A DNA stretch of 64,000 nucleotides from an uncultured virus (IMG/VR IMGVR_UViG_2799112477_000001). Lineage: Duplodnaviria; Heunggongvirae; Uroviricota; Caudoviricetes. The DNA lies in the IMG/VR virus record IMGVR_UViG_2799112477_000001; one strand, given 5' to 3'. Below, one piece after another: positions 1-57,535 of the stretch. Within the stretch, counting starts at the first letter, position 1. Each line of letters starts with the position of its first letter. Below the pieces are notes generated by a model that had not been told where the DNA came from, searched no databases, and was given only the letters and a program-made list of their open reading frames with translations. Position numbers and translations under genes: made by a program.

Positions 1-2055
1 CAAAGATATGAATATAACATCAGAAGTGACGCAAAGAAGCGATACAGCACTATAGGAAAGCTTCTTAAACGCGGCGACATAGACGTTGTGATCCATTGCG
101 GGGACCCTGATCGCGAAGGGCAGATCCTCGTTGATCTTGTGCTCCGTAATCTAGGCAATAAAAAGCCTGTTATAAGGCCTCAGCTCAAGGCACTTACAGA
201 CGAAGCGATCCTTGACGCTTTCAGGGCCGCAAAACCAAACGCGGAATACAAAGACGTTTTCAACGAGGGAATGACCCGCATGTGTTTTGACTGGGATTTC
301 GGTATAAATCTCAGCCAGTATGCGACGCTCAAGACAAATGCAAGGCCAGCTCTCAATGTAGGAAGGGTCATAGGTGCTATCGTCACCGAGATATATAACA
401 GGGATGTCTCTATAGAGAGGTTCGTCCCTGAAGAGTATTTCAAGGTCGTATCTGACGTCGATGGCGGTTTTAAGCTCACATCCAAGCTGAAATTTCTGGG
501 AGACAAGTTTAATGAGGCAGAAGACTATGCCCGGAAGCTGCAGGCAGGCGATTCTGTGGTCTCCGACATCCAGAAGAAACGCATAACAAAGAAGCCGCCG
601 AAGCTGTTTTCACAGACGTCACTTCAGGCGGCTATGTCGAAGAAGTTTAATTATAAGCCTGAGCAGACTCTTGATCTTGCTCAGAAACTATACGAAAAGG
701 GTTTTACTTCATATCCCCGGACCAACACCGAATATATAGCAGAGGACGAGAAGGAGAACATAAAAGGAGTAATAAATAAGATAAACAGGGATGGTCATCT
801 GGCATTCAGAGACAGCAAGTCCATATTTGACGACAGCAAGATAGACGGGCATTCGGCTATCACTGTCACCGGGAAAAGGCCGTCAGGGTTGTCTGATGCG
901 GAAAAGAACTGTTATCTCACTATCCTTTACCGCTTTATGGCCGTGTTCTGTAAGGATCCTTGTCTTTATGATAAGACAACTGTTGTTATAGATAATCCGC
1001 TTGAGCAGTTCAAGGTCAGCGGTGAGGTAATGGTGCAGCAGGGATGGCAAAGGTTTGAGCCGCCTGCAGGGAAAAGGGACAAAGATTCTGATGATGACAA
1101 GGATCAGGACGAAAGCCGCGTCCTGCCTCCTGTGAATATAGGCGACAAAGTGGAGACGGATTTCAAGGCGGTTTCTGCGGAGACGAAGCCTCCGAAGCAT
1201 TACACTGTTGAAACTCTCGGCAAATGGATGCAGAATCCGTTCAGAAAGGAAGACTCTACTGACGAGGAAGATTACAAAGATTACAAGAACATACTTGCCG
1301 GTCTTGAGATTGGGACGGAGGCGACCCGTGCCGGAATACTGGCAAAGGCTGCCGATAAAGGTTACATAAGCCTTAAGAAGAAAGCATACCACATAGAACC
1401 GAGAGGGAGGTTTCTTGTGGAGAGCTGCAAGAACCTCGGCATAGACTTCTCTGCGCAGATGACAGCGGACATGGGCAGGAAACTAAAGTCTGTCGGCAAG
1501 GGCGAGATCGGTATCATGGAGGTACTTAATGCCAACAGGAAAGAGATCCTGCGCGTTATAGGCGAGAACAGAGAAGTAAAGGCTGACTCTAAATCGTCTG
1601 GTGGTGAAGGGGAGTATGTAAGGAAAGAGAAGACCGAAGAGGACGTATATGTGCCAACAGGTGAAAAGGTATCGTTTGCAAAGGTTTTCAGCGGGCATTC
1701 CTTTACGTTGCATGAGATAGAGGCGCTTTTAGCGGGTGAAGAGATCTCTTTCGAGGCGGTATCTTCAAAAGGAAAAAGGTATACGGCTACGGGGCGCTTG
1801 TGCAAGCAGAAATATAAAGGCAGGGAGTTCTGGGGATTCAAACTCAATGAGCGAGAGTTTCCTGATGAGTATCTCGGGCATAGGTTCACTCATAGGTTCA
1901 CTGATGAGGAAAAAGCGGTTTTGCTAAAGAAAGGAAAGAAGGCAGATCGAACAATAACTGTGAGTGATCTTAAGAGCAACAGGACCGGGAAGACATTCAG
2001 TGCGCAACTGAGCTGGAACAGCAAGCAATCAAAGATTGAGGTCAAGTTCAAATAG
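1..2055 (+). CDS. topB: Type IA DNA topoisomerase (topoisomerase III-like, mobile-element type), 5' end outside window
   Basis: Frame is open from base 1. TOPRIM motif GDPDREG, catalytic SYPRT, GHSAI and IGTEATRA motifs are present, plus a C-terminal basic tail with repeated (G)H.FT..E...LL units. Confidence 0.92.
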   Translation, partial: QRYEYNIRSDAKKRYSTIGKLLKRGDIDVVIHCGDPDREGQILVDLVLRNLGNKKPVIRPQLKALTDEAILDAFRAAKPNAEYKDVFNEGMTRMCFDWDFGINLSQYATLKTNARPALNVGRVIGAIVTEIYNRDVSIERFVPEEYFKVVSDVDGGFKLTSKLKFLGDKFNEAEDYARKLQAGDSVVSDIQKKRITKKPPKLFSQTSLQAAMSKKFNYKPEQTLDLAQKLYEKGFTSYPRTNTEYIAEDEKENIKGVINKINRDGHLAFRDSKSIFDDSKIDGHSAITVTGKRPSGLSDAEKNCYLTILYRFMAVFCKDPCLYDKTTVVIDNPLEQFKVSGEVMVQQGWQRFEPPAGKRDKDSDDDKDQDESRVLPPVNIGDKVETDFKAVSAETKPPKHYTVETLGKWMQNPFRKEDSTDEEDYKDYKNILAGLEIGTEATRAGILAKAADKGYISLKKKAYHIEPRGRFLVESCKNLGIDFSAQMTADMGRKLKSVGKGEIGIMEVLNANRKEILRVIGENREVKADSKSSGGEGEYVRKEKTEEDVYVPTGEKVSFAKVFSGHSFTLHEIEALLAGEEISFEAVSSKGKRYTATGRLCKQKYKGREFWGFKLNEREFPDEYLGHRFTHRFTDEEKAVLLKKGKKADRTITVSDLKSNRTGKTFSAQLSWNSKQSKIEVKFK

Positions 2056-2156
2056 CGATTTGACCCTTTGGAACTATGTAATCTCTACTAGGTGTAGATC
2101 TCTTGGTGATGGCTTTTTCTGTGCTGCTTCCCTTTTGAACTATGTAATCTCTACTA

Positions 2157-3359
2157 GTATTGCGTAACATCTAAATGTTTATTATCGGATATAACCTTTT
2201 GAGTTTGACTCGTGCGTCATCAGTTGTGAACTGCCAGTCAACACCACGCTGCTTCTTGTTGCGGTCAACATGCCACGGCTCCAAAAGTGCGTTGAGCGCT
2301 TCCAGATCTGGGATCCTCTGAGAGCCGATGCACTGCCTACCAAGAGCAGAGAGTTCGATCTCGGCAATGTTCAGCCAACTTCCGTGTTTCGGAGTGAAGT
2401 GGATCTCCAGCCTGCTTGCAAGCTCCAGTGCACGCTCCGGCTTGAAAGTCTGGTAGAGTGACGCGATCGTATGAGTGTTGAGATTATCCATAACGAGAAC
2501 GACTTTCTTAGCTGATGGGTACTGAGTATCAAGCAGCCATTCGATCTTTCTTGCCCAGTCCTCTCTGGTGCGATGCTCTTCAGCATATGCGTAGCGCCAG
2601 CCATTGAGAGGTTCGGTGAACAGGAAGATTGATGCAGTTCCGTTACGTATATACTCATAATCCTCGTATTCGGTTCTGCCATTCTTGGAGCGAAAGCCTT
2701 TTCTGGCATTGGCGAATAACTGGATAGGTTTCTCATCCATGCAGACTACAGGATAGTCTTCATCGTATGGTCGGCTGTATACAGTGAGGACATCCTCCAT
2801 CGCTGCAACGAATGCAGCACTATGATCAGGAGGAATGCACCAGCACGCGGGACACTGTCATATGAGACAGTGAATCCACGTAATTAAGCTCAACACATTT
2901 ATCTGCAAGAAGGCGAACGGTCCAACGCTCATAACCTTCAGGAGGTTCGCTGCAGGCAAGAGCGACTATGTGCGCCTCGACATCCCCGGTCACTTTGGCT
3001 GGTACAGGTGGAGTCTCTCTCTTCTTCCTGTAGATCGTTGATTCAAGGCCGTTGTTCACATATGATGCCCTGACGGTCTGAACTGTTGTCGGTGATGTGT
3101 GGTACGCATCGGCGATCTGAGCAACGGTCATCCGCTGCTTGGCGTTGCGATCCGAGGCGAGCAATATGTTTGCTCTCAATATCGTTTTGGCAGATGAACT
3201 GCCCTTTGCAACGATATCCTTAAGAATTTTCCGATCGGCATCGGTCAATTCAATCAAATATTTTACTGATGGCATATGACTATCCTCCCATCTCTTCTAA
3301 GATGAGAATATCATATACCAGAACAACATTTTATACAAGTTTTAGATGTTACAAACTAC
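2157..3359 (-). mobile_element. IS630-family insertion sequence (1203 bp)
   Basis: TA duplication at 2155-2156 and 3360-3361. 19-bp terminal inverted repeats GTATTGCGTAACATCTAAA / revcomp GTAGTTTGTAACATCTAAA (16/19 identical). Two-ORF HTH plus DDE transposase. Confidence 0.95.
2171..3275 (-). pseudogene. IS630 transposase in two ORFs (HTH 2826-3275; DDE 2171-2800), probably defective
   Basis: DDE motifs CMDEKP, VMDNLNTH and SWLNIAEIE. At the ORF junction SRVL runs directly into out-of-frame WCIPP, and the A-rich slippery segment usually found there is absent. Confidence 0.75.
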
Positions 3360-3559
3360 TAGGTGTAGATACGAGAGCCTAAAAATCGTATACATACGAC
3401 CTTTGGAACTATGTAATCTCTACTATGTGTAGATGTGAACTGGAAGAGCAATACCTTATCACTTCCTTTGGAACTATGTAATCTCTACTATGTGTAGATT
3501 TATAGAAAAATGGCAATTGAGCTCGCCGCCGAAAGGCTATAGAGAAAGGGGTTGATACC

Positions 3560-3844
3560 TTGATGATAACAAATGCAGATGCCGGGATAGGATTTCTGAT
3601 AATCAATATCGTTTCCTTTCTTCTGTTTGGTCTCGATAAGAGTCTTGCAAAACAAAGGATGTGGAGAATACCTGAATCCGTGCTTTTAGGGATCTCTTTG
3701 CTTGGCGGAAGTTTCGGCGCATATGCGGGGATGCATGTCTTCAGGCATAAGACGAGAAAGGCTGCATTCAGACTTGGGATACCCGTGATCATCATCGTTC
3801 AGCTTCTATGTGCTGTTGCTTATTGCTTTTTCTTCAAAATATGA
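3560..3844 (+). CDS. DUF1294-family small membrane protein
   Basis: Motif FG.DK..A....WRIPE..L......GGS.GA..GM..FRHKT.K. Confidence 0.85.
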   Translation: MMITNADAGIGFLIINIVSFLLFGLDKSLAKQRMWRIPESVLLGISLLGGSFGAYAGMHVFRHKTRKAAFRLGIPVIIIVQLLCAVAYCFFFKI

Positions 3845-3866
3845 ATCCGCAGCATCGAACTTATTG

Positions 3867-3886
3867 AACCGGCGAGAGCCGGTTTT
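3867..3886 (+). terminator. Intrinsic terminator after the topB-array-DUF1294 unit
   Basis: AACCGGC-gaga-GCCGGTT followed by TT. Confidence 0.65.
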
Positions 3887-13720: not shown

Positions 13721-14143
13721 ATATGGCTTCCTCTGGTGTCGCTTAGCAATGCGCTGCAGATATGTTTTCTATAATCGCTATTTTAGCACATCCTCGGAGG
13801 TTTCCGAATCTGTTTCACCTTTATATATACAAAAGTTAAGCGAGTCTCATTTCGTGATCTCTTCAAAGTGTACTTCGCAGAATTTGCGAAACTCTTCAGA
13901 AGGGGACCGCTCAACTGACGTTCTGAAGAGCTCGGTGGATACTTCCTCGGTCCAACGCTCGTATTCGGCAACGGTTATGTAGTCTTTGAGCTTCTTTTCG
14001 GCTTCCGTCGCCATATACTGGTAGTTAATAGCTTCTTCTACGAGGAAACGCAGGAGAGCCTCAAGATCTTCAGTATCGCTTGTGTCGCACATTTCCACGG
14101 CTTCCGCCAGATATTCTATGTATTCCATCGAATAGTCCTCCTT

Positions 14144-14902
14144 CTAATATGCGACGTAACCGCGGATCAGATCAAAGAGCCAGTCATCGAGCCACCCGGA
14201 GAGTGTTTCGTCTGTCTGCGGATCTCTTTCCTTTATATATGTGTCAGCCATTGCTTTTGCCCTCTGCGCCAGCTCTCCTGCTATCTGCGCTGCCTTGGGG
14301 GCAGGGAAAACGGCATTTCTGATCTGAGCATATTTGCTGCAGTCAAGAACGGCCTCATATTTTTCGCCGGAAATGTATTTATCCAGCATAGCTGCTGTCT
14401 TGAAACAGTTCATCAGACTTTTTCTGTGGTAGCCGTACTTCTTTATGTCTTTGGCCGTCTTGTCAGTCTTCGTCAGCATCCGCTTGTATGTCTGTTCGAC
14501 CTGACCTGCAAGGCTCCTGACGGCTCTTCGCTCGTCCATATGAGCAAGCTTCTCTCTGTGGGCAATAAGTTCGTCGTATGCAAATTTGAAGCCCGGCGAG
14601 ACGAAGTGATAGTCGGTGAACAGCGTCTCTATATAATTCACATTCTGCTTTTTATAGTTATTGACTATCTCTCTTACGTCTTTTATGTCGCAGTCACCGC
14701 AGTCAAAGTTGATCGTCCTGCTGATTGGGGATCCAAGTATAAGGTCCCTGAGAGAAGGCGCTATGATGACTTTTGTGTCGATGTCGCTCTCTTCTGTGGC
14801 GAGTCCATAGTTCTGGCTGCCGCAGAGGAACACGCCCAGAACCGAATACTGCTTAGAAAGCACTTTGTATTCCTGTTTTAGGATTTTATTTATATCTGTC
14901 AC
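14144..14902 (-). CDS. Pol-beta superfamily nucleotidyltransferase (phage/YcgL-like)
   Basis: GSQNYGLATEESDIDTK (GS...DxD) and N.NYIE.LF. Confidence 0.8.
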   Translation of the reverse strand: MTDINKILKQEYKVLSKQYSVLGVFLCGSQNYGLATEESDIDTKVIIAPSLRDLILGSPISRTINFDCGDCDIKDVREIVNNYKKQNVNYIETLFTDYHFVSPGFKFAYDELIAHREKLAHMDERRAVRSLAGQVEQTYKRMLTKTDKTAKDIKKYGYHRKSLMNCFKTAAMLDKYISGEKYEAVLDCSKYAQIRNAVFPAPKAAQIAGELAQRAKAMADTYIKERDPQTDETLSGWLDDWLFDLIRGYVAY

Positions 14903-14935
14903 GGGTGATTGCCTCCTTTTTGCGTTTTGCTTTTT

Positions 14936-15366
14936 CTAATAGATGTACGGAACAACCAGCACCATCCCAGTGTCTGCGTCCGTGATATACCGCTCCGCTG
15001 GTCCGAACAACTGCATCGCTATATTTTCCTGGATAGGGGAGAGTGAGCAGAAGTCGCCGCTATCACGGTCGACGGCGCAGATGATGAATGTGCCGTGAAC
15101 TATGTCGTATACTGAGCCTTCATCGTCGATCAACGCTCTGCATCTGGGCAGGTCCAGAAACTTGCCTTCCTCATTGCAGAGAACGAACATGTCGGCGGTT
15201 TCTCTGGTCTTCTTCGGCCAGAAGGGGTGGTGGGATTCCATGAGACCGCCGAGGATCTCGCGTATGGTGTCCCCATTATTTTTGATTTCTTTTGTATATG
15301 CGGCCTTCTCCGGATCGCAGATTATCACTTTGATATGCTGTTCTTTCATCTTAAACCCTATCTCAT
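14936..15366 (-). CDS. DUF3846-like protein; its probable 5' part (17156-17249) is separated by the IscB insertion
   Basis: CNEEGKFLDLP..R......DIVHGTFII......F.SL. Removing 15367-17155 joins the two parts in frame. Confidence 0.75.
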
Positions 15367-15422: not shown

Positions 15423-16772
15423 TTACATTACCTGTCTCCAGCCACCAACGTGATGGAGGAGCCTTATTTTCCTCGGCGAAATATCGCCTCCTCCGATAAG
15501 CTGTACGCTTGCGCCCTTGTTGTGGGTGCCCTTGACTGTGCGATTTCTTCCTTCAAAGATGACGATGTCCCCGGGCTGGTACAAATATCGCTGCGTGCGA
15601 ATACTGCGCCTGCCTTTAGATACCTTCTTCCCGCGAAAGATGCGCTCATTTTGAGAGTTGCTTCGTGGTATCGATCTTGAGGTGCGGTTACACCCGAGTT
15701 CCGCCGCCTTCTTCGTTTTGCCGTCACGTATGTCCACATATTTCGCGTCATAGAACTTCTCGAGTATGCGGTTGTTACGGCGGCGCTTCTCGAAGTAAAG
15801 CGTCCTTGTGCGGTGCTTCGGTCTCAGGCTGCCGATGCAATAGGCATCGTTAGCGTGTGACTTCCCGATATTGAGATCTATCCTCGTGCGTTTCGTCACG
15901 GCACCGTAGGTGATACTTGCCTCGACACCGAAGGATTTTACATCTTCGTAGATATGCCACTTTACGGTATTCATGAATGACGCGGACGCCATGCCTTTTG
16001 GTGGTTTCAGATCCCAGAGCTTTCCGCCCGGCTTATGGTTCTTCGGGCTATGGCACTTCTCGCATACTGTAGCTAGATTTGACAGCCTGTTTGACCTGTC
16101 ACCGGCACGGAAGCCGACATGGTGGATGCGAAGTATCACCCCGTCATGTATAGCCGACTTACCGCAGCAGAGACATCTGTAACCGTCTCTTGCAAAGACT
16201 GCTTCTCTCAAAGTGTCGTATCCGTATCTTGGACCGTGCTGATAGTCAGTACCGACCGGGATCGGCTTGCCCTGCTCGACAACGGTAAGGACCGCCGGAT
16301 CGAACTGTCCCATCTCCAATGTGACTTTTGTTATTGGGCAGACCTCATCGTACATCCTGAAGATGTCTATGTGGCGGTCCGCTTTGTTCCTGAGCGACGG
16401 AGCGAGCCAGCCTTCAGGCTTATTTCTGTTGTCGAAGCGTACCTTACGATAACGCTTTCTGTTACGCCTGGGTCTTCTCACCTCGCGGCGCTGATCGTCG
16501 TGGTGCTGTTTCTCGTCTTTGAGAAGCGTGTACTCCGCACTCACATATTCTTGTTTCTCCGATTTCAGAGAGACTCCGATATGCTGATACCCGGTATCCA
16601 CGCTCAGCTCGACTGGCTGTACTCCGCTTGTTGTATCGTACAAAAGCTGCACAGTGAACGGCTGATGCTTCACGATTTTCGCTCTTCCTGATCGGAGGAG
16701 CTTTCGGATCTTCCTGATGTTCATCGTTGGCATCAGCCTCTCGCCTTCTGCCGATATGACAAAGATTGTCAT
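15423..16772 (-). CDS. iscB: IscB RNA-guided endonuclease
   Basis: PLMP-like RLMP, RuvC-I SVDTG, Arg-rich bridge helix RRPRRNRKRYRKVRFDNR, RuvC-II TLEMG, HNH CLCC..HH..N..NL...CEKCH and RuvC-III SHANDA. Confidence 0.95.
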   Translation of the reverse strand: MTIFVISAEGERLMPTMNIRKIRKLLRSGRAKIVKHQPFTVQLLYDTTSGVQPVELSVDTGYQHIGVSLKSEKQEYVSAEYTLLKDEKQHHDDQRREVRRPRRNRKRYRKVRFDNRNKPEGWLAPSLRNKADRHIDIFRMYDEVCPITKVTLEMGQFDPAVLTVVEQGKPIPVGTDYQHGPRYGYDTLREAVFARDGYRCLCCGKSAIHDGVILRIHHVGFRAGDRSNRLSNLATVCEKCHSPKNHKPGGKLWDLKPPKGMASASFMNTVKWHIYEDVKSFGVEASITYGAVTKRTRIDLNIGKSHANDAYCIGSLRPKHRTRTLYFEKRRRNNRILEKFYDAKYVDIRDGKTKKAAELGCNRTSRSIPRSNSQNERIFRGKKVSKGRRSIRTQRYLYQPGDIVIFEGRNRTVKGTHNKGASVQLIGGGDISPRKIRLLHHVGGWRQVM

Positions 16773-16789
16773 GCGCTCCTCCTTTCTGT

Positions 16790-17155
16790 TGTTTCCTTTA
16801 CTGTAACTTGTTTTGCCTTACGGCTTCCGTATACCGTTCCTCCGAAGAAGGCGTATACACGGGTTCTCGCCCCGTAGGGCGGGGTCCACATCGCCAATGT
16901 TATTCCGCGGTTTGCTGATATACGCACTTCGGCTGCCCATCACCGATGTTTAACGCATATCCGTAGTGCCAGGGACTTGTGGAGCATCCCGGGGTACCTA
17001 TGCTTGATACAAGGAGGGACCCGCTATGCGGGAGGATTCCTTATATCGTTATTCGCGGATAACGTAGTGCACTGAGCACTTAGGCTAATCAACTGACTTG
17101 TTTTCACAAGCCCCCGCTTCAAAGCTCGTCAGAGCATAAGCGGTGGGTGGTTGAC
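16790..17155 (-). ncRNA. omegaRNA (HEARO-type) scaffold; the guide would derive from the flank at 17156 and above
   Basis: About 370 nt of non-coding, hairpin-rich sequence upstream of iscB, containing GTCAAC...GTTGATTAGCCTAAGT...ACTACGTT...AACATTGGCGA. The 3' boundary is approximate. Confidence 0.85.
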
Positions 17156-29500: not shown

Positions 29501-30295
29501 TCAGCTTTTTTTAGCTGACTTTTTTACATAATGCATTTTTTTCCTACGCCTTCCTCTACAAATTGGACATGATTCAATGCCTCTCATTTTGTTTTCTACT
29601 CTAGCATTAATAGCCATTTCATATATATGGTCATCGTTGTTTTCGCATTCCCAAAACACAACACTTGTATCATTTTCAGTTACGTGATTTGGATTAACAT
29701 TAAGGTAGTTGTTATACTTATAGAACCAGTACTTCATTAGATCTTCTTGCCGTGCTGCAAAACTGTTAGCGCGGCGAGCACATATAGGGCAAGCGATATT
29801 CCCCGCTTTTTTACACTGCACACGACTTCTCGGAGTCATACTGTAACTGTGCCCCAAACTGCACTTTAATTCGACCGGCCTATTATAATTCTCCGCTATT
29901 TCCCATGGATCAACCTCATTCTTTTCATAATCCCATTCCGGAAGCAGATCCTCATTCAGAGCTGCAAAACTGTTAGCGCGGCGAGCACATATAGGGCAAG
30001 CGATATGTCCTGTTTTTTTACACTGCACACGCTTCATCGGAGTCATACTGTAACTGTGCCCCAAATTGCAATTTAAATTGACTGGCCTTTCATAATTCTC
30101 CGGTATTTCCCATGGATCAACTTCATTTCTCTCATAGTCCCATTCCGGAAGCAGATCCTCATTCAGAGCTGCAAAACTGTTGACATCAGGTATTACCACA
30201 CGACCAGCACAGACCGGGCAAGCGATATGCCCTGCTTTTTTACGCCGCACACGACTTCTCGGAGTCATACTGTAACAAAGTGAAGAAACATGCAA
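29501..30295 (-). CDS. DUF4379-like zinc-ribbon repeat protein, apparently 5'-truncated
   Basis: Repeats of NSFA..N.DL..EWDYE.N...P.........C..GH.Y.......CP.C; 207-bp DNA period (29754, 29961, 30168). Confidence 0.75.
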   Translation of the reverse strand: MHVSSLCYSMTPRSRVRRKKAGHIACPVCAGRVVIPDVNSFAALNEDLLPEWDYERNEVDPWEIPENYERPVNLNCNLGHSYSMTPMKRVQCKKTGHIACPICARRANSFAALNEDLLPEWDYEKNEVDPWEIAENYNRPVELKCSLGHSYSMTPRSRVQCKKAGNIACPICARRANSFAARQEDLMKYWFYKYNNYLNVNPNHVTENDTSVVFWECENNDDHIYEMAINARVENKMRGIESCPICRGRRRKKMHYVKKSAKKS

Positions 30296-50313: not shown

Positions 50314-50389
50314 TGGAGCTTCGGGCAGGATTCGAACCTGCGCTACCTTCACCTACGGATGGTAGACTTGCCTATTATCTTACCGAAGC
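50314..50389 (-). tRNA. Atypical tRNA (76 nt; loop CGTAGGT would give TAG, but U33 is missing)
   Basis: Acceptor GCTTCGG/CCGAAGC-T-CCA, T arm GCAGG-TTCGAAT-CCTGC, and a mismatched anticodon stem. Confidence 0.6.
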
Positions 50390-50588: not shown

Positions 50589-50667
50589 TGGAGCTTCGGG
50601 TAGGAGTCGAACCTACATACAACTGCGTTTGCATACAGTTTGCTCTGGCCAATTGCGCTACCGAAGC
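50589..50667 (-). tRNA. Atypical tRNA with an expanded (8-10 nt) anticodon loop
   Basis: Acceptor GCTTCGG/CCGAAGC-T-CCA, D arm with TGG, AACTG-TATGCAAACG-CAGTT, and T arm GTAGG-TTCGACT-CCTAC. Confidence 0.65.
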
Positions 50668-52826: not shown

Positions 52827-53648
52827 TCAATTCGTTTTCCAGCTTGATCCTGTCACATAGTCTATGGATATCCCTGGCTCTACGTTATAGCAGAAAACGT
52901 TGATATGAAACTTCGTTCCTCTGCTCTCTACGTCGCCTGCTTCGATATGTACGCCTCTACAGACCAGCTCGTTGCCTTTGAAGACAGGAGTTGCACGGTA
53001 TAGGATCCTTCCGCCCTTTCTCAGGAGCCAGTTCTGCGTAGCTTTCTCCGCATAGGACAGCTGACCATCGACATTCATATATTCAGTGCCTGTGACAAGG
53101 TTCCTCGGATCATCTGTAATCCCTGAGACCGCATACATTATGAGGTGGCAGCGGTTGTACAGCCATCCGCTGTTTCTGCTGATTAGGTCAGGATATTGCG
53201 CCTGGTTCCAGCCTGAAGGAGTGACATGCGACAAGTCAAAGTCTCTTTCCCCTTCCGGTATCGTGTCTTTTCCAAGTGAAGCTTCACACGCACCGCATCT
53301 GCCGAGCCAGTCGAGCTCGGACAATTCTATATACATAGATTCTGCTTTCTTGTAATCCTCTTCCGTGAATTCCGGTTTGTTCCCGTTCAGGACATAGGTT
53401 GGTGTACCGGAGTATTCAGGGATAGAATCCAGAAGGCTGCTCTTTTCTGTCTGCATTGGAGCGGGTCTGTTTTCTGCCTGTTCAGCAGATTTGTCTATAT
53501 CCTGTATGCTTCCGAACTCACCGGGAGGATCCACTATCACAGAGTGCTGTCGCATCGTATATATGCCCGCACCAATGACTAGCAGCATAATCAGCAGCAT
53601 TCTTACTGTTCTGTATAATTTTTCTTTCTTGCTGTATGGATATTTCAT
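52827..53648 (-). CDS. Membrane-anchored DNA/RNA non-specific endonuclease (DNA-entry nuclease type)
   Basis: N-terminal TM segment, LD.LGRC, PSGWNQ, YNRCHLI, NLVTGT.YMN and YRATPVF.GNELV.RG. Confidence 0.88.
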   Translation of the reverse strand: MKYPYSKKEKLYRTVRMLLIMLLVIGAGIYTMRQHSVIVDPPGEFGSIQDIDKSAEQAENRPAPMQTEKSSLLDSIPEYSGTPTYVLNGNKPEFTEEDYKKAESMYIELSELDWLGRCGACEASLGKDTIPEGERDFDLSHVTPSGWNQAQYPDLISRNSGWLYNRCHLIMYAVSGITDDPRNLVTGTEYMNVDGQLSYAEKATQNWLLRKGGRILYRATPVFKGNELVCRGVHIEAGDVESRGTKFHINVFCYNVEPGISIDYVTGSSWKTN

Positions 53649-53659
53649 CTATTTCTGTT

Positions 53660-53847
53660 CTGTTCGTCCATTTTGCCGCGCAGAATCTACATATTATATA
53701 TAGTAGAGATTTTTGTTTTGAGTCGGTAAATACTTCAGCACCGGCAGACCTTCCCGGAAGTAGAGATTTTGCGACAAGCAACAAGCACAAGTACCTATCT
53801 ACACCATGCGCATATATATGATATCCCTGCGCAGGCAAGTAGAGATT
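53660..53847 (-). CRISPR. Non-canonical Cas12a mini-array with loop-expanded handles
   Basis: AAAATCTCTACT occurs three times on the - strand (core at 53838-53847, 53759-53768, 53702-53711). Two copies are closed by TGTAGAT (GTAGAT at 53797-53802 and 53685-53690). Confidence 0.75.
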
Positions 53848-53881: not shown

Positions 53882-56800
53882 TTACTGTTCCTGTATATGC
53901 TGCAGCCAGTCGCTGCTTGATATAGACAGAGATACAGGTTTTGTCGTTTTGTCCCCTGCCCGTGCTGTCAGAGCTTCTTCTGACGCGCTCTTGATTCTAT
54001 TGACTATCATCAGCCCCTTGCGGGCAATGTTGTATGCGCTATTATCGTCCTTTGGCGCTTCGAAGAAGCTTCCCGTGGCCAGATCCATGATTGGTGAAAC
54101 GATATTTGATCCTGTGCGCATCTGTACGATGAGGCCAAAGAGCGCAAGAAGTTCTTCGTGGAAACTCTTATCGGTCATGCTGCACAGAGCTTCTCTGAGG
54201 TCCTCTGAGCTTTCATCGATACCGTGGTCGTTCAGAAGGCCTGTGATCGACTCCGTCAGATTGATAGGCTTATAGTTTATGCCTTTATCTCCTCTGACCG
54301 CACGGATCCGCTCTCCATGTGAGAAAACGCTCCATTTCATCCTGCAGCCATCGAGCTGCTTCAGCCTGTTCTCGCTTATAAAGTAGCTGTAGTCGAAGTC
54401 GAATCTGTACGCCCTGACCTCTTCGTCGTAAACGATCCTGTCAAAGGCGTGCCAGAAGGCTTTGGCTGCGGGGATGTTTGTGTATCTGGTATCAAACAGG
54501 TTCACAAATCCTGTATTCGAATCTATTTCTGTGATCTTCCACGGCGAAACGTAGAAGATAAAACCTGTCTGTTTTCCGATCTTGTCGAAGCTTTCGAACG
54601 GAGCTGTCAGCTGATAAGCTCTGTAGATCCCGCCCGGTTCATCCGGTTCAGCGGATTTGTTTACAAGCAGATTCAGCTTGCTTATAAGGCGTGCTTCAAG
54701 CTGCTGATATACAGCTTTTTCTATCTTCTGGCGCTGCTGTTTGAACCCGAGGCTCATATCCTCGATCGCTATTACTGCGTCGTATTTGAGCATAAGGTCG
54801 GCAAGGATGCGCACGACCTGCCCGATGTAGCCGTCTTTAAGCTGCTTTATGCCCTCTACTGATTCCCAGCTCTTTCTTTCAGCCATACGCTGGAGTTCTC
54901 TGCTTTCAAGGAGCTTCGCATAGTCGGTCTTCTTAGGCTTACTGCCGGAAGCCTGCTCTATGACGTTGAGAGATCTGTTCTCTAAAACATTTCCCTTTGG
55001 GTCAAGGACGCAGAGCTGGATGAGATTGTTTTCTCCCCTGCTCACACCGATGACATGTACGTTGTCTTCCTTCTTTATAGCGAGTCTCGCTTCGGTGTTG
55101 ATAAAGCTGAAATTCGTTGCGGAAGCATTTATGGTGATCGGCACGTTGAGCTGAAATTTGTTTACCGTGAATCTGCGGTCCTTTACGATGTCATACTTAA
55201 GGACCTTGCTCCTCTTCGGATTCAGAGGGTTCTTTGCTGCTACTACATCGCCTGCCCTGTGGATCACGGCATCTTCCGGTTTTATGGATGCCTGTCTGAA
55301 GAAAAGTTCTGCTCCTCCGTTGAGTCTGCAGATCGGGGGCTCCCCGTTTCTAGGATCAAACAGTGCTCTCCAGTAAATAGTTGACAGGTCCGGTTTGCCG
55401 TATGCCTTGTTGCTGAAATCCCTGTGCCAGATTTCGAAGAGATAGAGCTGCCCGTTCTCTACAAGCTCGTTTACGACAGCTGTATCTATCGGTCTGTACT
55501 TTAGCGAATATCCTGCTGTTTCTACTTCACGGAAGAAGCATGAGATATCCTCGTAAGCAGCAGTTTCCGAGAATTTAAAGGAGAACATCTGCCATGCGTC
55601 CGTGACTGCGATACAGTCCTTGTAGAAGTCGATGAGCCTGTGGCAGTCTTCAAGGCTGAAGTCTTTTCCCTTCTTGAAGGTGCCACTCTTGTAAATGCGC
55701 ATGATGTCTTCTGAAGGTTTGTAGTTTTCGATCCCCTTTCTGGAGAAGATAACGTGCGGAAGAGCTTTGTTGGCTCCGGTCAGCAGGTTGTACCTCATCT
55801 TCATATAGACATCGTCCGTTACTGCTTCAGGGACCTTTTTGAACAGGTTGCCCTGCCCTTTTGCAATGATCCCAAGATAGTATTTGCCGTCTTTCAGAAG
55901 CAGCGTTCCGAGCTTTGCGCTTTCAACGCTTTCCGCCCAGCCGTCGAGGAGGAGGGAAGAACCGAAGTTGAGTTTGACCTTTTCAGTCGTATATATCTTG
56001 CCTGAAAGGTAGTTTCTGGTTTTGTTGTAGATGGAAGTAACAGCATTCAGCGCGTCCATCAGCGGCTCATAATCTGTGTAGAATGCGAGATCTTTGTCTC
56101 CCGTCCTGACGGAAAGGTTCTCTGTAGAGCGTCTGATGTTCAGGGCCGCGTCAAGGTATTCCTTTATAACGGCTTTTGCCTTGCTGCTGCTTTTGAGGCT
56201 TCTTGGCTCTGAGCCTCTCATCTGAAGGAATGCGAGGAGGTCTCTTCTTGCCAGATCGAAAGACATCTTGCAGAAGCCTGCCTCGCCCGTTATGTATGTC
56301 GACAGCTTCCCGTCTATTCCCGGAATGATATCCAGTTCTCCGATGCTGTAATACTCTTTCTTTCTCAGCGCTGTGTCTTTCTGCTTACGGTATGCTGCGG
56401 AACGGCGCCTCTTTTCGGTCACATCCTGTTCGAAATCGTATTTATCCCCGAGAAGATCTTTCATCTTACTCCAGGATCCGAGCATCTTATTCGATATGTC
56501 ATTCAGAGCTTTTGTCCTGATGTATATTCCGTTAAGATCGTAGCCTCCTATGGAGCTTATGAGGGCCGTCATGCCTTCCGCTGCAGGCCTGAAGAGCTCA
56601 TCCAGCGCGAGGAGCGCGTCTATTACCTCATCGTCTTCTCTGAACGCTTCAGGGATGAACGAGAGTGTCGTTCTGTCGCTCAGGATCTGCTTTTTCAGAG
56701 GTGTCAGCTTGGGAAGACGGTCTTCTTTGCTTTCAGCTGCCTGATTTGCCAGGTTGATGTATTCGTTCAGGCCTTTTATCTTAGTCCCGTCTTCTTTTGC

Positions 56801-57535
56801 AAAGCCGCCGATAAGCTGGTTGTATCTGTCTATGCCGCTCTGGGCCATTACCTTGCTGAAGCCTTCAACGGAGAAGGAGTCAGACATGCTGTCATCGCCA
56901 AGCAGTGCAGCTAGTTCTTTTTCAGCTGTCTTTATATTGTCCGGGAGAACTTCTGAGATCCTCGTGAATTTCCTGTGGTTATCGAGGAAGATAGGCAGGT
57001 TGTCGTCTATGATCCTGCCGGCGACCGAACCACTCTTTCCGGAAGCGTCATATATGAGCCTCCTGTTATTGTGGTATCCGGTGAAGTAAGATGCGAATCC
57101 TTCAAAGCTGCTTATAGCTGCCATTGCTTCTGCGTCATTCTCATACATAGCAGGAAGAAGCTTGTCGAAGAGATCCGCCTTAAAGAGGTCGTTATAGCCT
57201 TTTGCGCCTGTGAGATCATTTGATATATTCTCAGTCATGCGCCTTGCGAGGTCATTCATTTCCTCTCTGGCCTCATCGCCCTTTTCCGGGTGGAAGTAGA
57301 GATCTGCATATGCGGTAAGATCGCTCCCGAGGGAAAAGCCATTAAGAGTATTTTCTATGTGGGTTTTGTGGAGCCCGTCTATGAGCTTCTGGACTTTCTT
57401 CTTTTCCTCTGCCCGTCTTGTGTCCTCTTCTATGATCCCCCGCTCTTCGATGTATTCGAGGGTCTTCCCCTGCGGGATCAGGCCGAATCTAAGCGTTTTG
57501 CTGATCTTGTAAAGATTTGTGAAATTCTCGTACAT
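53882..57535 (-). CDS. cas12a: Cas12a (Cpf1), predicted nuclease-inactive (RuvC-I D>S)
   Basis: FTNLY..SKTLRF.L.PQGKT, KGLNEYINL, LKKQILSD, YNKTRNYL, LNGGAELFFR, KDRRFT and AYNIARKG. RuvC-I reads IGVSRGENNL. Confidence 0.95.
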   Translation of the reverse strand: MYENFTNLYKISKTLRFGLIPQGKTLEYIEERGIIEEDTRRAEEKKKVQKLIDGLHKTHIENTLNGFSLGSDLTAYADLYFHPEKGDEAREEMNDLARRMTENISNDLTGAKGYNDLFKADLFDKLLPAMYENDAEAMAAISSFEGFASYFTGYHNNRRLIYDASGKSGSVAGRIIDDNLPIFLDNHRKFTRISEVLPDNIKTAEKELAALLGDDSMSDSFSVEGFSKVMAQSGIDRYNQLIGGFAKEDGTKIKGLNEYINLANQAAESKEDRLPKLTPLKKQILSDRTTLSFIPEAFREDDEVIDALLALDELFRPAAEGMTALISSIGGYDLNGIYIRTKALNDISNKMLGSWSKMKDLLGDKYDFEQDVTEKRRRSAAYRKQKDTALRKKEYYSIGELDIIPGIDGKLSTYITGEAGFCKMSFDLARRDLLAFLQMRGSEPRSLKSSSKAKAVIKEYLDAALNIRRSTENLSVRTGDKDLAFYTDYEPLMDALNAVTSIYNKTRNYLSGKIYTTEKVKLNFGSSLLLDGWAESVESAKLGTLLLKDGKYYLGIIAKGQGNLFKKVPEAVTDDVYMKMRYNLLTGANKALPHVIFSRKGIENYKPSEDIMRIYKSGTFKKGKDFSLEDCHRLIDFYKDCIAVTDAWQMFSFKFSETAAYEDISCFFREVETAGYSLKYRPIDTAVVNELVENGQLYLFEIWHRDFSNKAYGKPDLSTIYWRALFDPRNGEPPICRLNGGAELFFRQASIKPEDAVIHRAGDVVAAKNPLNPKRSKVLKYDIVKDRRFTVNKFQLNVPITINASATNFSFINTEARLAIKKEDNVHVIGVSRGENNLIQLCVLDPKGNVLENRSLNVIEQASGSKPKKTDYAKLLESRELQRMAERKSWESVEGIKQLKDGYIGQVVRILADLMLKYDAVIAIEDMSLGFKQQRQKIEKAVYQQLEARLISKLNLLVNKSAEPDEPGGIYRAYQLTAPFESFDKIGKQTGFIFYVSPWKITEIDSNTGFVNLFDTRYTNIPAAKAFWHAFDRIVYDEEVRAYRFDFDYSYFISENRLKQLDGCRMKWSVFSHGERIRAVRGDKGINYKPINLTESITGLLNDHGIDESSEDLREALCSMTDKSFHEELLALFGLIVQMRTGSNIVSPIMDLATGSFFEAPKDDNSAYNIARKGLMIVNRIKSASEEALTARAGDKTTKPVSLSISSSDWLQHIQEQ

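Follow-up and report, generated by a model that had tools for sequence, protein, structure and literature searches.

Cas12a, familiar from its use in genome editing, is an immune effector that cuts DNA. Its canonical type V-A loci are arranged as cas12a-cas4-cas1-cas2-array, and the locus described here resembles them in its 35-nt repeats with a period of 65–66 nt, in the 3' handle of these repeats (5-bp UCUAC/GUAGA stem, 5-nt loop) with the guide located 3' of the repeat, and in an effector that scores as a Cas12a equivalog. It differs from them in several respects: adaptation genes were not detected, 50 kb separate the array from cas12a and only 9 nt from an unrelated gene ahead of it, the handle flank carries C for T, the RuvC-I Asp of the effector is replaced by Ser, and some additional units consist of a handle only, with loops of 11 to 34 nt.

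According to excerpts of a comparative work (PMC12669027), a trend toward an inactive RuvC-like domain recurs among type V systems, with binding still providing interference. The binding-only systems treated there include V-C Cas12c and V-M Cas12m as well as the predicted kin V-O, V-P, and Cas12b3, the last on a conjugative plasmid. As far as these excerpts go, the present case shares with them a plasmid setting in which no adaptation genes were found, but the effector here is a bona fide subtype V-A Cas12a, and its binding-only interference is a prediction. The passages of the same work on Cas12a, V-A, and inactivated effectors contain no inactivated V-A variant. A literature search, subscription papers and supplements aside, yielded no account of a subtype V-A Cas12a with a naturally inactive RuvC.

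Array anatomy downstream of topB

The analyzed stretch of DNA (64,000 nt in total, referred to as the window) opens within topB, the topoisomerase III gene (Topoisom_bac E 2.8e-83; TIGR01056 topB E 2.4e-93), with a weak C-terminal repeat match extending to residue 683 of 684; the gene starts near C42:92165 and is preceded by an AGGAGG site. Its stop codon TAG (2053–2055) is followed by a gap of only 9 nt (2056–2064) and then by an array of four 35-nt repeats and three unique spacers (31, 29, and 30 nt), i.e., a type V-A array, with a period of 65–66 nt after setting an insertion sequence (IS) aside. The sequence thereby confirmed the start of repeat 1 as given in the original prediction, and also the placement of the array between topB and a DUF1294 gene ahead of a terminator (Table 1). 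The interval 2056–3499 had, however, been taken as array in its entirety. An insertion of the IS630 family, overlooked at that time, makes up 83% of it (1,203 of 1,444 bases), and one of the three guides is therefore probably disabled.

The IS630-family element is flanked by a TA duplication (2155–2156 and 3360–3361), ends in inverted repeats with 16 matches over the first 19 nt, and sits in the loop of repeat 2. Taking out the element and one TA restores a repeat of 35 nt with one mismatch compared with repeat 1. The transposase gene is split, and the copy in the array lacks 35 nt that are present in all four sequencing runs compared. In run X6 the IS occupies the same array site, one contig spanning the left junction; in run X7 the same element was present in other contexts only. 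An IS-free allele of the array was seen in neither of these two runs.

As a result of the insertion, 1.2 kb separate spacers 2 and 3 from topB. Spacer 2 has lost its own handle because repeat 2 is broken by the IS, and the 3' part of this repeat together with the IS end forms a stem of only 4 bp, without the AAUC flank. Spacers 1 and 3 retain intact handles. Repeats 1, 3, and 4 are intact and 97–100% identical to one another; folding of repeats 1 and 3 gave the Cas12a handle, in which a 5-bp UCUAC/GUAGA stem encloses a short loop and a last U precedes the guide, and a pattern search recovered this motif as well. In one contig of run X6, positions 3400–3464 (repeat 3 and spacer 3) are skipped, possibly representing a k=31 assembly collapse across two identical 35-nt repeats.

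Table 1. Features around the topB array, at the cas12a locus, and upstream of topB (window positions, or positions on contig C42 where prefixed)
Feature	Position	Strand	Remarks
topB (topoisomerase III), 3' part	1..2055	+	ORF enters from beyond window start
Repeat 1, 35 nt	2065-2099	+	handle with 5-bp stem, 5-nt loop
Spacer 1, 31 nt	2100-2130	+	
Repeat 2, 5' part	2131-2156	+	runs to TA target site
IS630-family insertion, 1,203 bp	2157-3359	-	DDE_3, HTH_32, NF033545, ends, TA duplication
IS630 transposase, two ORFs	3275-2826 and 2800-2171	-	NF033545 IS630 transposase match in both pieces
Promoter-like site within IS	3038-3066	+	faces spacers 2-3; promoter scan
Repeat 2, 3' part	3360-3370	+	
Spacer 2, 29 nt	3371-3399	+	handle disrupted by IS
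Repeat 3, 35 nt	3400-3434	+	
Spacer 3, 30 nt	3435-3464	+	
Repeat 4, 35 nt	3465-3499	+	same sequence as repeat 3; DUF1294 start ~60 nt on
DUF1294 gene	3560-3844	+	PF06961 E 3.9e-25
Terminator-like hairpin, T-rich tail	3866-3885	+	first + strand site of its kind past topB
Endonuclea_NS_2 gene	52827..53648	-	PF13930 E 2.9e-14; directly downstream of last handle
Handle-only mini-array, cas12a 3'UTR	53685..53847	-	
Mini-array handle with 34-nt hairpin loop	53847-53797	-	26-nt spacer behind
Mini-array half handle	53768-53759	-	
Mini-array handle with 11-nt loop	53711-53685	-	36 nt ahead of next gene's ATG
cas12a, 1,217 aa	53882..57535	-	5/5 Cas12a Pfam domains; TIGR04330
Promoter-like site upstream of topB	C42:91814-91843		
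Solitary C-variant handle	C42:91975		~150 nt upstream of topB start

Genomic setting

The respective MAG is 85.6% complete (2.52 Mb), and its contig C42 is not closed; no end overlap indicating circularity was found. The gene set of the element comprises a Rep3 initiator, ParA and ParB, two T4SS coupling proteins, and a TraG P-loop protein, furthermore a large cell-wall hydrolase, a sortase with an adhesin, and two SSBs, while housekeeping families were not seen among its Pfam matches. Based on this gene content, the element looks like a conjugative, plasmid-like replicon of roughly 160 kb from a rumen bacterium. Six-frame searches of the 85.6%-complete MAG for Cas1, Cas2, and Cas4 returned nothing. 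The MAG was also examined for a second, active Cas12a with an adaptation module, and none was found, in line with the assignment of the array to the known protein. Within the host family, Cas12a is present in two out of 150 other genomes. A comparison of topB with PLSDB yielded relatives of 41% identity at most and was useless in terms of synteny because of this low identity.

The Cas12a effector

The Cas12a encoded on the element is the only one in the MAG. It shows the full Pfam domain set of REC1, REC2, PI, RuvC, and Nuc and reaches 1093 bits against TIGR04330, compared with a cut-off of 300. According to the alignments, its RuvC triad consists of S832, E925, and D1163, with Ser replacing the RuvC-I Asp. 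This Ser is invariant in the clade (11/11 members, 50–98% identity, nine of them at 50–56%), and the Asp is found in all 21 other Cas12a proteins of the same alignment. The S832 clade has a support of 1.0 in a tree of 226 proteins and is reduced to a single representative in a set of 1.84 billion clusters at 50% identity. In addition, there are deletions ahead of the RuvC-III motif and behind the Nuc Arg. Engineered Cas12a variants with the RuvC Asp exchanged for Ala have lost DNA cleavage, and by likeness to these mutants the Ser is predicted to abolish it as well. The proposal that the probable effector, 50 kb away from the array, is a dead Cas12a hence gained a substitution shared by the whole clade, the loss of DNA cleavage being its predicted consequence.

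As judged from a dN/dS of 0.28 relative to its nearest relative L008 (98% identical), purifying selection acts on cas12a. Its product retains the RNase residues H759, K768, and K785, which align with those of LbCas12a, and this copy should still be able to process pre-crRNA. L008 carries Arg in place of H759, so self-processing is not conserved. Substitution of the RuvC triad is not a one-off within Cas12a: outside the S832 clade it is incomplete in 26 out of 215 family proteins, which together with this clade represent 15 substituted clades in the tree. Two other RuvC-I-substituted lineages have guides immediately past the stop codon and are neighbored by conjugation or transposon genes; the flanks retrieved contained neither cas1 nor cas2 nor cas4. 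Scans for relatives' DNA gave two at 38% and 32% among genome contigs, two at 98% among metagenomes, the topB regions of which lie beyond the 10-kb flanks, and none among viral contigs. The contigs behind L008 and L009 measure 156 and 155 kb.

Guide loci sharing a rare handle variant

The handle flank of the element reads AAUC, compared with AAUU in ordinary Cas12a arrays. Among 52 comparison arrays, defined as those adjoining an ordinary Cas12a within 82 loci examined, the respective position is T in 51, G in one, and C in none. A search for the pattern AATCTCTACTNNNNGTAGAT in 300 further genomes from the host family gave zero matches. The window itself hosts seven copies of AATCTCTACT, four in the array and three beside cas12a, with 0.25 being expected by chance and none of 100 shuffled windows containing seven; the predicted recurrence of the array's variant in all three cas12a-side handles was therefore verified. 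Across the 2.52-Mb MAG, all nine complete C-variant handles are located on contig C42, which represents 6.4% of the bases. They fall into four groups, i.e., one upstream of topB, three in the array, three in the cas12a 3'UTR, and two promoter-linked ones, the E1/E2 pair, having its own promoter-like site ~30 nt upstream. The original prediction had assumed that two loci serve one dead Cas12a. The shared rare handle and the single Cas12a of the MAG speak for this common effector, but the number of loci had to be revised to at least four because further C-variant handles occur on C42 outside the window.

Several of these handles have loops expanded by hairpins, ranging from 11 to 34 nt. Those adjacent to cas12a lack the 5' repeat part, unlike the full repeats of the topB array, and relative to L008 a 47-nt unit is gone from the cas12a-adjacent array. 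Between cas12a and the downstream Endonuclea_NS_2 gene, no minus-strand terminator-like site was detected; the product of the latter has a hydrophobic-looking N-terminus, as judged by eye. A scan of IMG/VR for the C-variant pattern retrieved 34 stretches and was discarded, this number being estimated as near chance for 16 specified bases and two of the stretches being simple tandem repeats of 40 nt that lack variable spacers. The handle pattern also had no match in the two Cas12a-domain genomes of the family, which is uninformative, since the pattern had a fixed loop length.

Protospacers for spacers 1–3 were not found in the MAG. Comparison with PLSDB plasmids and GenBank phages gave nothing besides one 21-nt match (E 0.7), and exact 24-mers had no hit in IMG/VR, a search that mismatched targets would escape. 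Guides aimed at their own loci were ruled out, as AGAT instead of a T-rich PAM precedes each self-site.

Transcription and competing explanations

Scanning the + strand revealed no terminator-like site from topB to position 3866. Joint transcription of topB and the array is plausible from this arrangement; the original prediction further proposed that processing of the repeats could cleave this mRNA. The RNA runs X15 and X16 matched parts of the IS alone and nothing on topB or the array, and are uninformative on expression.

The C-variant handles all share the contig of this Cas12a, the sole one in the MAG, and for this reason the array most likely feeds it. We consider it about an even chance that the small canonical V-A array supplies guides in trans to the non-cutting Cas12a of the element, their pairing being a co-occurrence within a single lineage. 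According to this explanation, the array would be part of a topB-DUF1294 transcription unit and be reached by read-through from topB. The Cas12a would still bind crRNA and DNA, without DNA cutting, and would thereby exert a CRISPRi-like interference by binding, directed against rival mobile elements or regulated genes. A transcriptional variant, possible though doubtful, is that the array has a promoter of its own, located either in the topB 3' end or, in the case of spacers 2 and 3, in the IS, which would uncouple the guides from topB. The + strand promoter-like site within the IS faces exactly these two spacers, and the promoter-like site of the E1/E2 pair shows the same theme at another handle locus. 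The + strand scan of positions 1500–2065 gave no such site; it was a crude scan limited to the sigma-70 consensus, through which real promoters can slip. The 9 nt between stop codon and repeat 1 as well as the lack of a terminator-like site after topB in the scan argue against a separate promoter. The earlier statement that there is no room for one thus holds for the gap, but not for the topB coding sequence, where a promoter may lie.

A further-reaching extension of guide supply in trans, which we regard as rather unlikely, combines mRNA processing with RNA-guided repression on a conjugative megaplasmid that has woven dead-Cas12a handles into its own operons, i.e., into the topB leader, between topB and DUF1294, into the cas12a 3'UTR before the nuclease gene, and as a promoter-linked pair. 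At these sites, the Cas12a RNase would cut plasmid mRNAs at the handles, simultaneously freeing the guides, and would stay attached to the downstream transcripts at their 5' ends. Decay is an improbable alternative at a comparable level, the array then being an unused relic of an active V-A system, eroded by the IS and by repeat-repeat deletions. The IS630 element within repeat 2, common to run X6, fits such erosion, as do the adaptation genes not found in the MAG, the lack of a target for any spacer in the databases searched, the 47-nt unit missing in comparison to L008, and the X6 contig without repeat 3 and spacer 3, although the latter may be the k=31 collapse mentioned above. In contrast, the near identity of the three intact repeats, the single mismatch of the rebuilt repeat 2 to repeat 1, the handle variant kept across all loci of the element, and the purifying selection on cas12a do not support decay.

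A role in counter-defence appears quite unlikely. The repeats would act as Racr-like RNA decoys, or the crRNAs of a host Cas12a would be sequestered by the dead one, shielding the plasmid in hosts with type V-A immunity. Excerpts of two works provide precedents: a Cas12a system is inhibited by solitary V-A repeat units that mobile elements carry (PMC10651486), and an anti-CRISPR role has been proposed for a phage Cas9 whose RuvC domain is inactivated (PMC12669027). Three of the handles here are likewise solitary or paired and away from cas12a, one pair being promoter-linked. However, the handle mimics no array sampled, since C replaces the T of ordinary arrays (51 T, one G, and no C in 52), Cas12a as a possible opponent is rare in the host family, and the unique, normal-length spacers of the topB array would be superfluous for a decoy. 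Least probable, and in our view very unlikely, is a service to another, active Cas12a, encoded in an unassembled part of the genome or on a co-resident element. The incompleteness of the MAG leaves space for it, and the full 35-nt repeats with spacers of 29–31 nt look like Cas1-Cas2 products, compared with the cas12a-side handles without 5' part. Opposed to this, neither a second Cas12a nor Cas1, Cas2, or Cas4 was found in the MAG, and the C-variant, absent from the 300 family genomes and the 52 ordinary arrays, is confined to C42.

Comparison with known systems

The emerging theme of binding-only CRISPR effectors on mobile elements would reach the best-studied subtype of type V with a natural non-cutting V-A lineage that a conjugative element maintains under selection. 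Its guide sites appear to be dispersed in operons and to tolerate hairpin insertions of 11–34 nt in the handle loop; if the further-reaching extension above is true, such expanded loops would represent a natural precedent for loop-engineered crRNAs.

Plasmid-borne type IV-A3 systems employ a class 1 multi-subunit effector with DinG, in contrast to the single class 2 protein of this element, and the spacers here had no plasmid target in PLSDB. Racr and solitary repeat units, as far as described in the excerpts of PMC10651486, are alike in presenting isolated repeat-like units on a mobile element, some of them promoter-linked. They differ from the present case in that a matching Cas12a is encoded here on the same contig, three unique spacers are present in the topB array, and none of the ordinary arrays sampled shares the handle variant; a Racr is a repeat mimic devoid of working spacers that inhibits a host system from an element without cognate cas genes, and the topB array is outside this definition. 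In the descriptions considered, a further likeness is offered by TldRs (TnpB-like nuclease-dead repressors), which also combine a RuvC-dead Cas12 relative with few fixed, gene-adjacent guides. TldRs are small TnpB descendants using an omega-RNA-like guide, whereas the element described here encodes a full-length Cas12a with CRISPR-type handles at several loci.

Anatomy of the topB array

The type V-A array directly 3' of topB, whose ORF is open at the window start, consists of four 35-nt repeats and three spacers (31, 29, and 30 nt) and is separated from the topB stop codon by 9 nt. The last 20 nt of each repeat fold into the Cas12a handle, a hairpin whose 5-nt loop closes a 5-bp UCUAC/GUAGA stem; on the + strand the guide lies 3' of the repeat. 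The 9-nt gap, the DUF1294 gene followed by a terminator-like hairpin, and the handle variant common to this array and the cas12a locus, all reported by the original prediction, were borne out. The array observation is therefore real, yet incomplete: an IS630-family insertion in repeat 2 had been overlooked, and three further handles outside the window had been missed.

A TA duplication borders the 1,203-bp insertion on both sides, and the termini of the element match as inverted repeats at 16 of the first 19 nt. Within it are two ORFs with HTH_32 and DDE_3 domains, each matching the NCBIfam IS630 transposase model. Excision of the element together with one TA restores a 35-nt repeat differing from repeat 1 at one position. 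The insertion point is the handle loop of repeat 2, so that spacer 1 is left without a downstream processing site, while the handle of spacer 2 now folds into a 4-bp stem and has no AAUC flank. We compared the window with contigs of four public runs, built from 31-mers. In X6, a run from another sample of the source study, the element sits at the identical junction; in the run X7 it occurs alone and in other contexts. All four runs carry 35 extra letters inside the element (at window 2845/2846), whose absence from the window copy fits its split transposase frame (ORFs of 149 and 209 aa). One X6 contig omits 3400-3464 (repeat 3 and spacer 3). The gap may have arisen through collapse during assembly and need not mark a true variant, because the 35 nt that repeats 3 and 4 have in common exceed the 31-mers used to build the contigs.

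Features of the guide loci and of contig C42, which carries the window (positions refer to the window unless prefixed C42)
Feature	Position	Strand	Remarks
topB stop codon	2053-2055		TAG
Repeat 1	2065-2099	+	
Repeat 2	2131-2165	+	first 26-27 nt only matching
IS630-family element	2157-3359	-	within repeat 2
Promoter-like site in IS	3038-3066	+	
Repeat 3	3400-3434	+	
Repeat 4	3465-3499	+	
DUF1294 ORF	3560-3844		3' of array
Terminator-like hairpin	3866-3885	+	first such + strand site
RRXRR+HNH protein	15423-17155	-	IscB-type unit with HEARO RNA
207-nt tandem repeat	29754-30181		2.1 copies, 91% match
Two tRNA genes	50317-50389, 50592-50667	-	
cas12a ORF	53882-57535	-	1,217 aa
First handle beside cas12a			34-nt loop, extended hairpin; -17.4 kcal/mol, z -2.9
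Spacer beside cas12a			26 nt
Half handle beside cas12a			3' of 26-nt spacer
Last handle beside cas12a			11-nt loop; 36 nt before ATG of Endonuclea_NS_2 gene
Three tandem tyrosine recombinase genes	C42:91-3270	-	contig start
RRXRR protein	C42:83939-85288		
RRXRR protein	C42:86416-87879		
TnpB	C42:90282-91409		~750 nt upstream of topB start
Promoter-like site	C42:91814-91843		
New handle	C42:91975		24-nt loop, hairpin stacked on handle stem; -12.8 kcal/mol
New handle pair	C42:161775, C42:161702	-	5- and 13-nt loops

A handle variant common to the array and cas12a

Judged from sequence, the tie between the topB array and this Cas12a is the handle variant, with C in its 5' flank (AAUC) where ordinary arrays have T (AAUU). 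Among the 52 of 82 examined loci with an array adjoining an ordinary Cas12a, this position was T in 51, G in one, and never C. The 10-mer AATCTCTACT occurs seven times in the window (four in the topB array, three beside cas12a) against 0.25 expected. The variant pattern was absent from all 300 other host-family genomes searched, and a Cas12a RuvC domain was found in only 2 of 150. A scan of the whole metagenome-assembled genome (MAG), allowing loops of 3-70 nt, returned nine complete variant handles, every one on C42: the three intact array repeats, three beside cas12a, and three new ones outside the window. The co-occurrence of variant handles with this cas12a is thus exclusive.

One of the new handles follows a promoter-like site and precedes the topB start by ~150 nt; the other two form a pair ~30 nt behind a promoter-like site of their own. 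They are unlikely to be accidental, because by our estimate the 9-mer alone would occur by chance ~1.2 times on C42 and GTAGAT would follow a given 9-mer within 70 nt in <2% of cases. If so, handles stand on both sides of topB, and the guide loci of the element number at least four.

The locus beside cas12a begins 31 nt past the stop codon and differs in kind from the topB array: its handles lack the 5' repeat part, whereas the topB array has full 35-nt repeats and 29-31-nt spacers. In L008, the metagenome locus encoding a 98% identical relative, the array in the cas12a 3'UTR contains an extra 47-nt unit (L008:13768-13814; a 4-nt-loop handle and a 26-nt spacer), lost from the window at 53771 between two handle starts. 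By its sequence, the topB array has the look of a Cas1-Cas2 product and may have been assembled in trans or taken over from an active system.

Separately, two AT-rich viral contigs from IMG/VR (L098:2990-3130 and L116:2950-3160) contain plain 40-nt tandem repeats with no variable spacers, each unit holding a hairpin that resembles a Cas12a handle and has the same C variant.

The Cas12a effector

The cas12a product contains all five Cas12a Pfam domains and scores 1093 bits against the Cas12a equivalog model. In HMMER alignments, GIDRGER of LbCas12a reads GVSRGEN in this protein. In an alignment with 31 homologues, the RuvC-I position is Ser in this protein and in the 10 homologues nearest to it (50-98% identity); the other 21 all have Asp. 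Ser832, Glu925, and Asp1163 are invariant across this 11-member clade. Two deletions also mark the clade, one of ~12 residues preceding the RuvC-III motif and one of ~9 residues following the Nuc-domain Arg. The whole clade amounts to one protein among 1.84 billion cluster representatives, the next match dropping to 39% identity. Compared with the L008 relative, 25 synonymous and 26 non-synonymous differences give a dN/dS of 0.28, so that cas12a is under purifying selection. The RNase residues His759, Lys768, and Lys785 are all present in this copy; in L008 Arg replaces His759, so conservation of pre-crRNA self-processing fails already at the nearest relative.

The host element

C42 measures 162,836 nt and belongs to a 2.52-Mb MAG (85.6% complete). 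The domain scan covered 75 of the 79 ORFs of at least 90 aa outside the window (four spanning locus borders were left out) and 48 ORFs inside. Matches included a Rep3 initiator, ParA, ParB, two SSBs, a TraG P-loop protein, two T4SS coupling proteins, a relaxase-like helicase, a sortase accompanied by a TQ/SpaA adhesin, and a 1,755-aa cell-wall hydrolase. Type I restriction-modification, GmrSD, several integrases, TnpB, and three IscB-like proteins were also matched, and no housekeeping families occurred among the matches of the scanned ORFs. We read C42 as a conjugative plasmid or similar element; no end overlap was found. The 2.52 Mb of the MAG compare with 1.3-1.8 Mb for four genomes of the same genus. 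C42 may be extrachromosomal or may have entered the bin from another source, and the same may hold for other contigs.

Among further features of the contig, a HEARO RNA (Rfam RF02033, 115.6 bits) lies upstream of the RRXRR+HNH protein, and the 207-nt tandem repeat falls in an ORF with DUF4379 zinc-finger repeats; two tRNA genes are present on this plasmid-like element.

Proposed function and alternatives

We infer that this Cas12a binds crRNAs from these loci and PAM-flanked DNA without cutting; interference would then resemble the occlusion reported for other type V effectors with an inactive RuvC domain (PMC12669027). The original prediction, that both loci serve the same dead Cas12a, is partly supported: the common rare handle and the sole Cas12a of the MAG argue for the pairing, whereas crRNA binding and non-cutting stay predictions. 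Co-transcription of the array with topB is plausible: the final 560 nt of topB contain no + strand promoter-like site, and the first + strand terminator-like site lies at 3866. With the putative RNase active, processing would cut the topB-DUF1294 message. After the insertion, spacers 1 and 3 would be usable and spacer 2 probably not.

Instead of coupling to topB, the array might be driven by a promoter of its own, and the promoter-like site within the IS could drive the distal half. The array might also be a decaying relic, a reading in keeping with the insertion, with the deletions, and with the lack of targets (searches of the MAG, plasmids, phages, and IMG/VR gave no target for any guide); that three repeats are intact and cas12a is under selection speaks against decay. 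Service to an active Cas12a in unassembled sequence would be compatible with the incompleteness of the MAG, but six-frame searches of its 85.6% revealed one Cas12a and no Cas1, Cas2, or Cas4, and hence neither the second effector nor the adaptation genes named in advance as contrary evidence. Counter-defence through repeat mimicry or crRNA sponging has a precedent in V-A Racrs (PMC10651486); however, the C variant mimics no ordinary array sampled (n=52), and few genomes of the host family carry V-A.

Comparison with known systems

We surveyed 226 Cas12a-family proteins of at least 1,100 aa (the query and 225 of 236 other proteins, 11 shorter ones being dropped). The full Asp-Glu-Asp triad is absent in 37 of them, 26 of 215 outside this clade; substitutions affect RuvC-I or RuvC-III, and all 226 retain the RuvC-II Glu. 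The substituted proteins form 15 maximal clades, this one (support 1.0) included (FastTree, 1,204 columns, midpoint root). At one such locus, L051, the Cas12a has Lys at RuvC-I and at least 19 repeats directly 3' (13810-14959). These repeats are heterogeneous in their 5' parts, and most have 8-nt loops; upstream are a T4SS coupling protein and a resolvase. Two others, L055 (3690) and L056 (6243), have Asn at RuvC-I and a single handle ~55 nt past the stop, near TnpB and a DUF3849 gene, with no array. The fetched flanks of all three contained no cas1, cas2, or cas4.

In the 2025 CRISPR classification, loss of RuvC activity is described as recurring within type V, with V-C, V-M, V-O, V-P, and Cas12b3 as named cases, and its passages on Cas12a, V-A, and inactivation contain no inactivated V-A variant (PMC12669027); passages of PMC10910872 name only Cas12a2. 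At the level of abstracts and passages, no paper on a natural RuvC-inactive Cas12a was found, and a mention elsewhere is possible. Against this background the array itself is of modest novelty; what is new in the system around it is that a conserved V-A Cas12a, predicted not to cut, occurs on a conjugative element together with dispersed handles whose loops are expanded.
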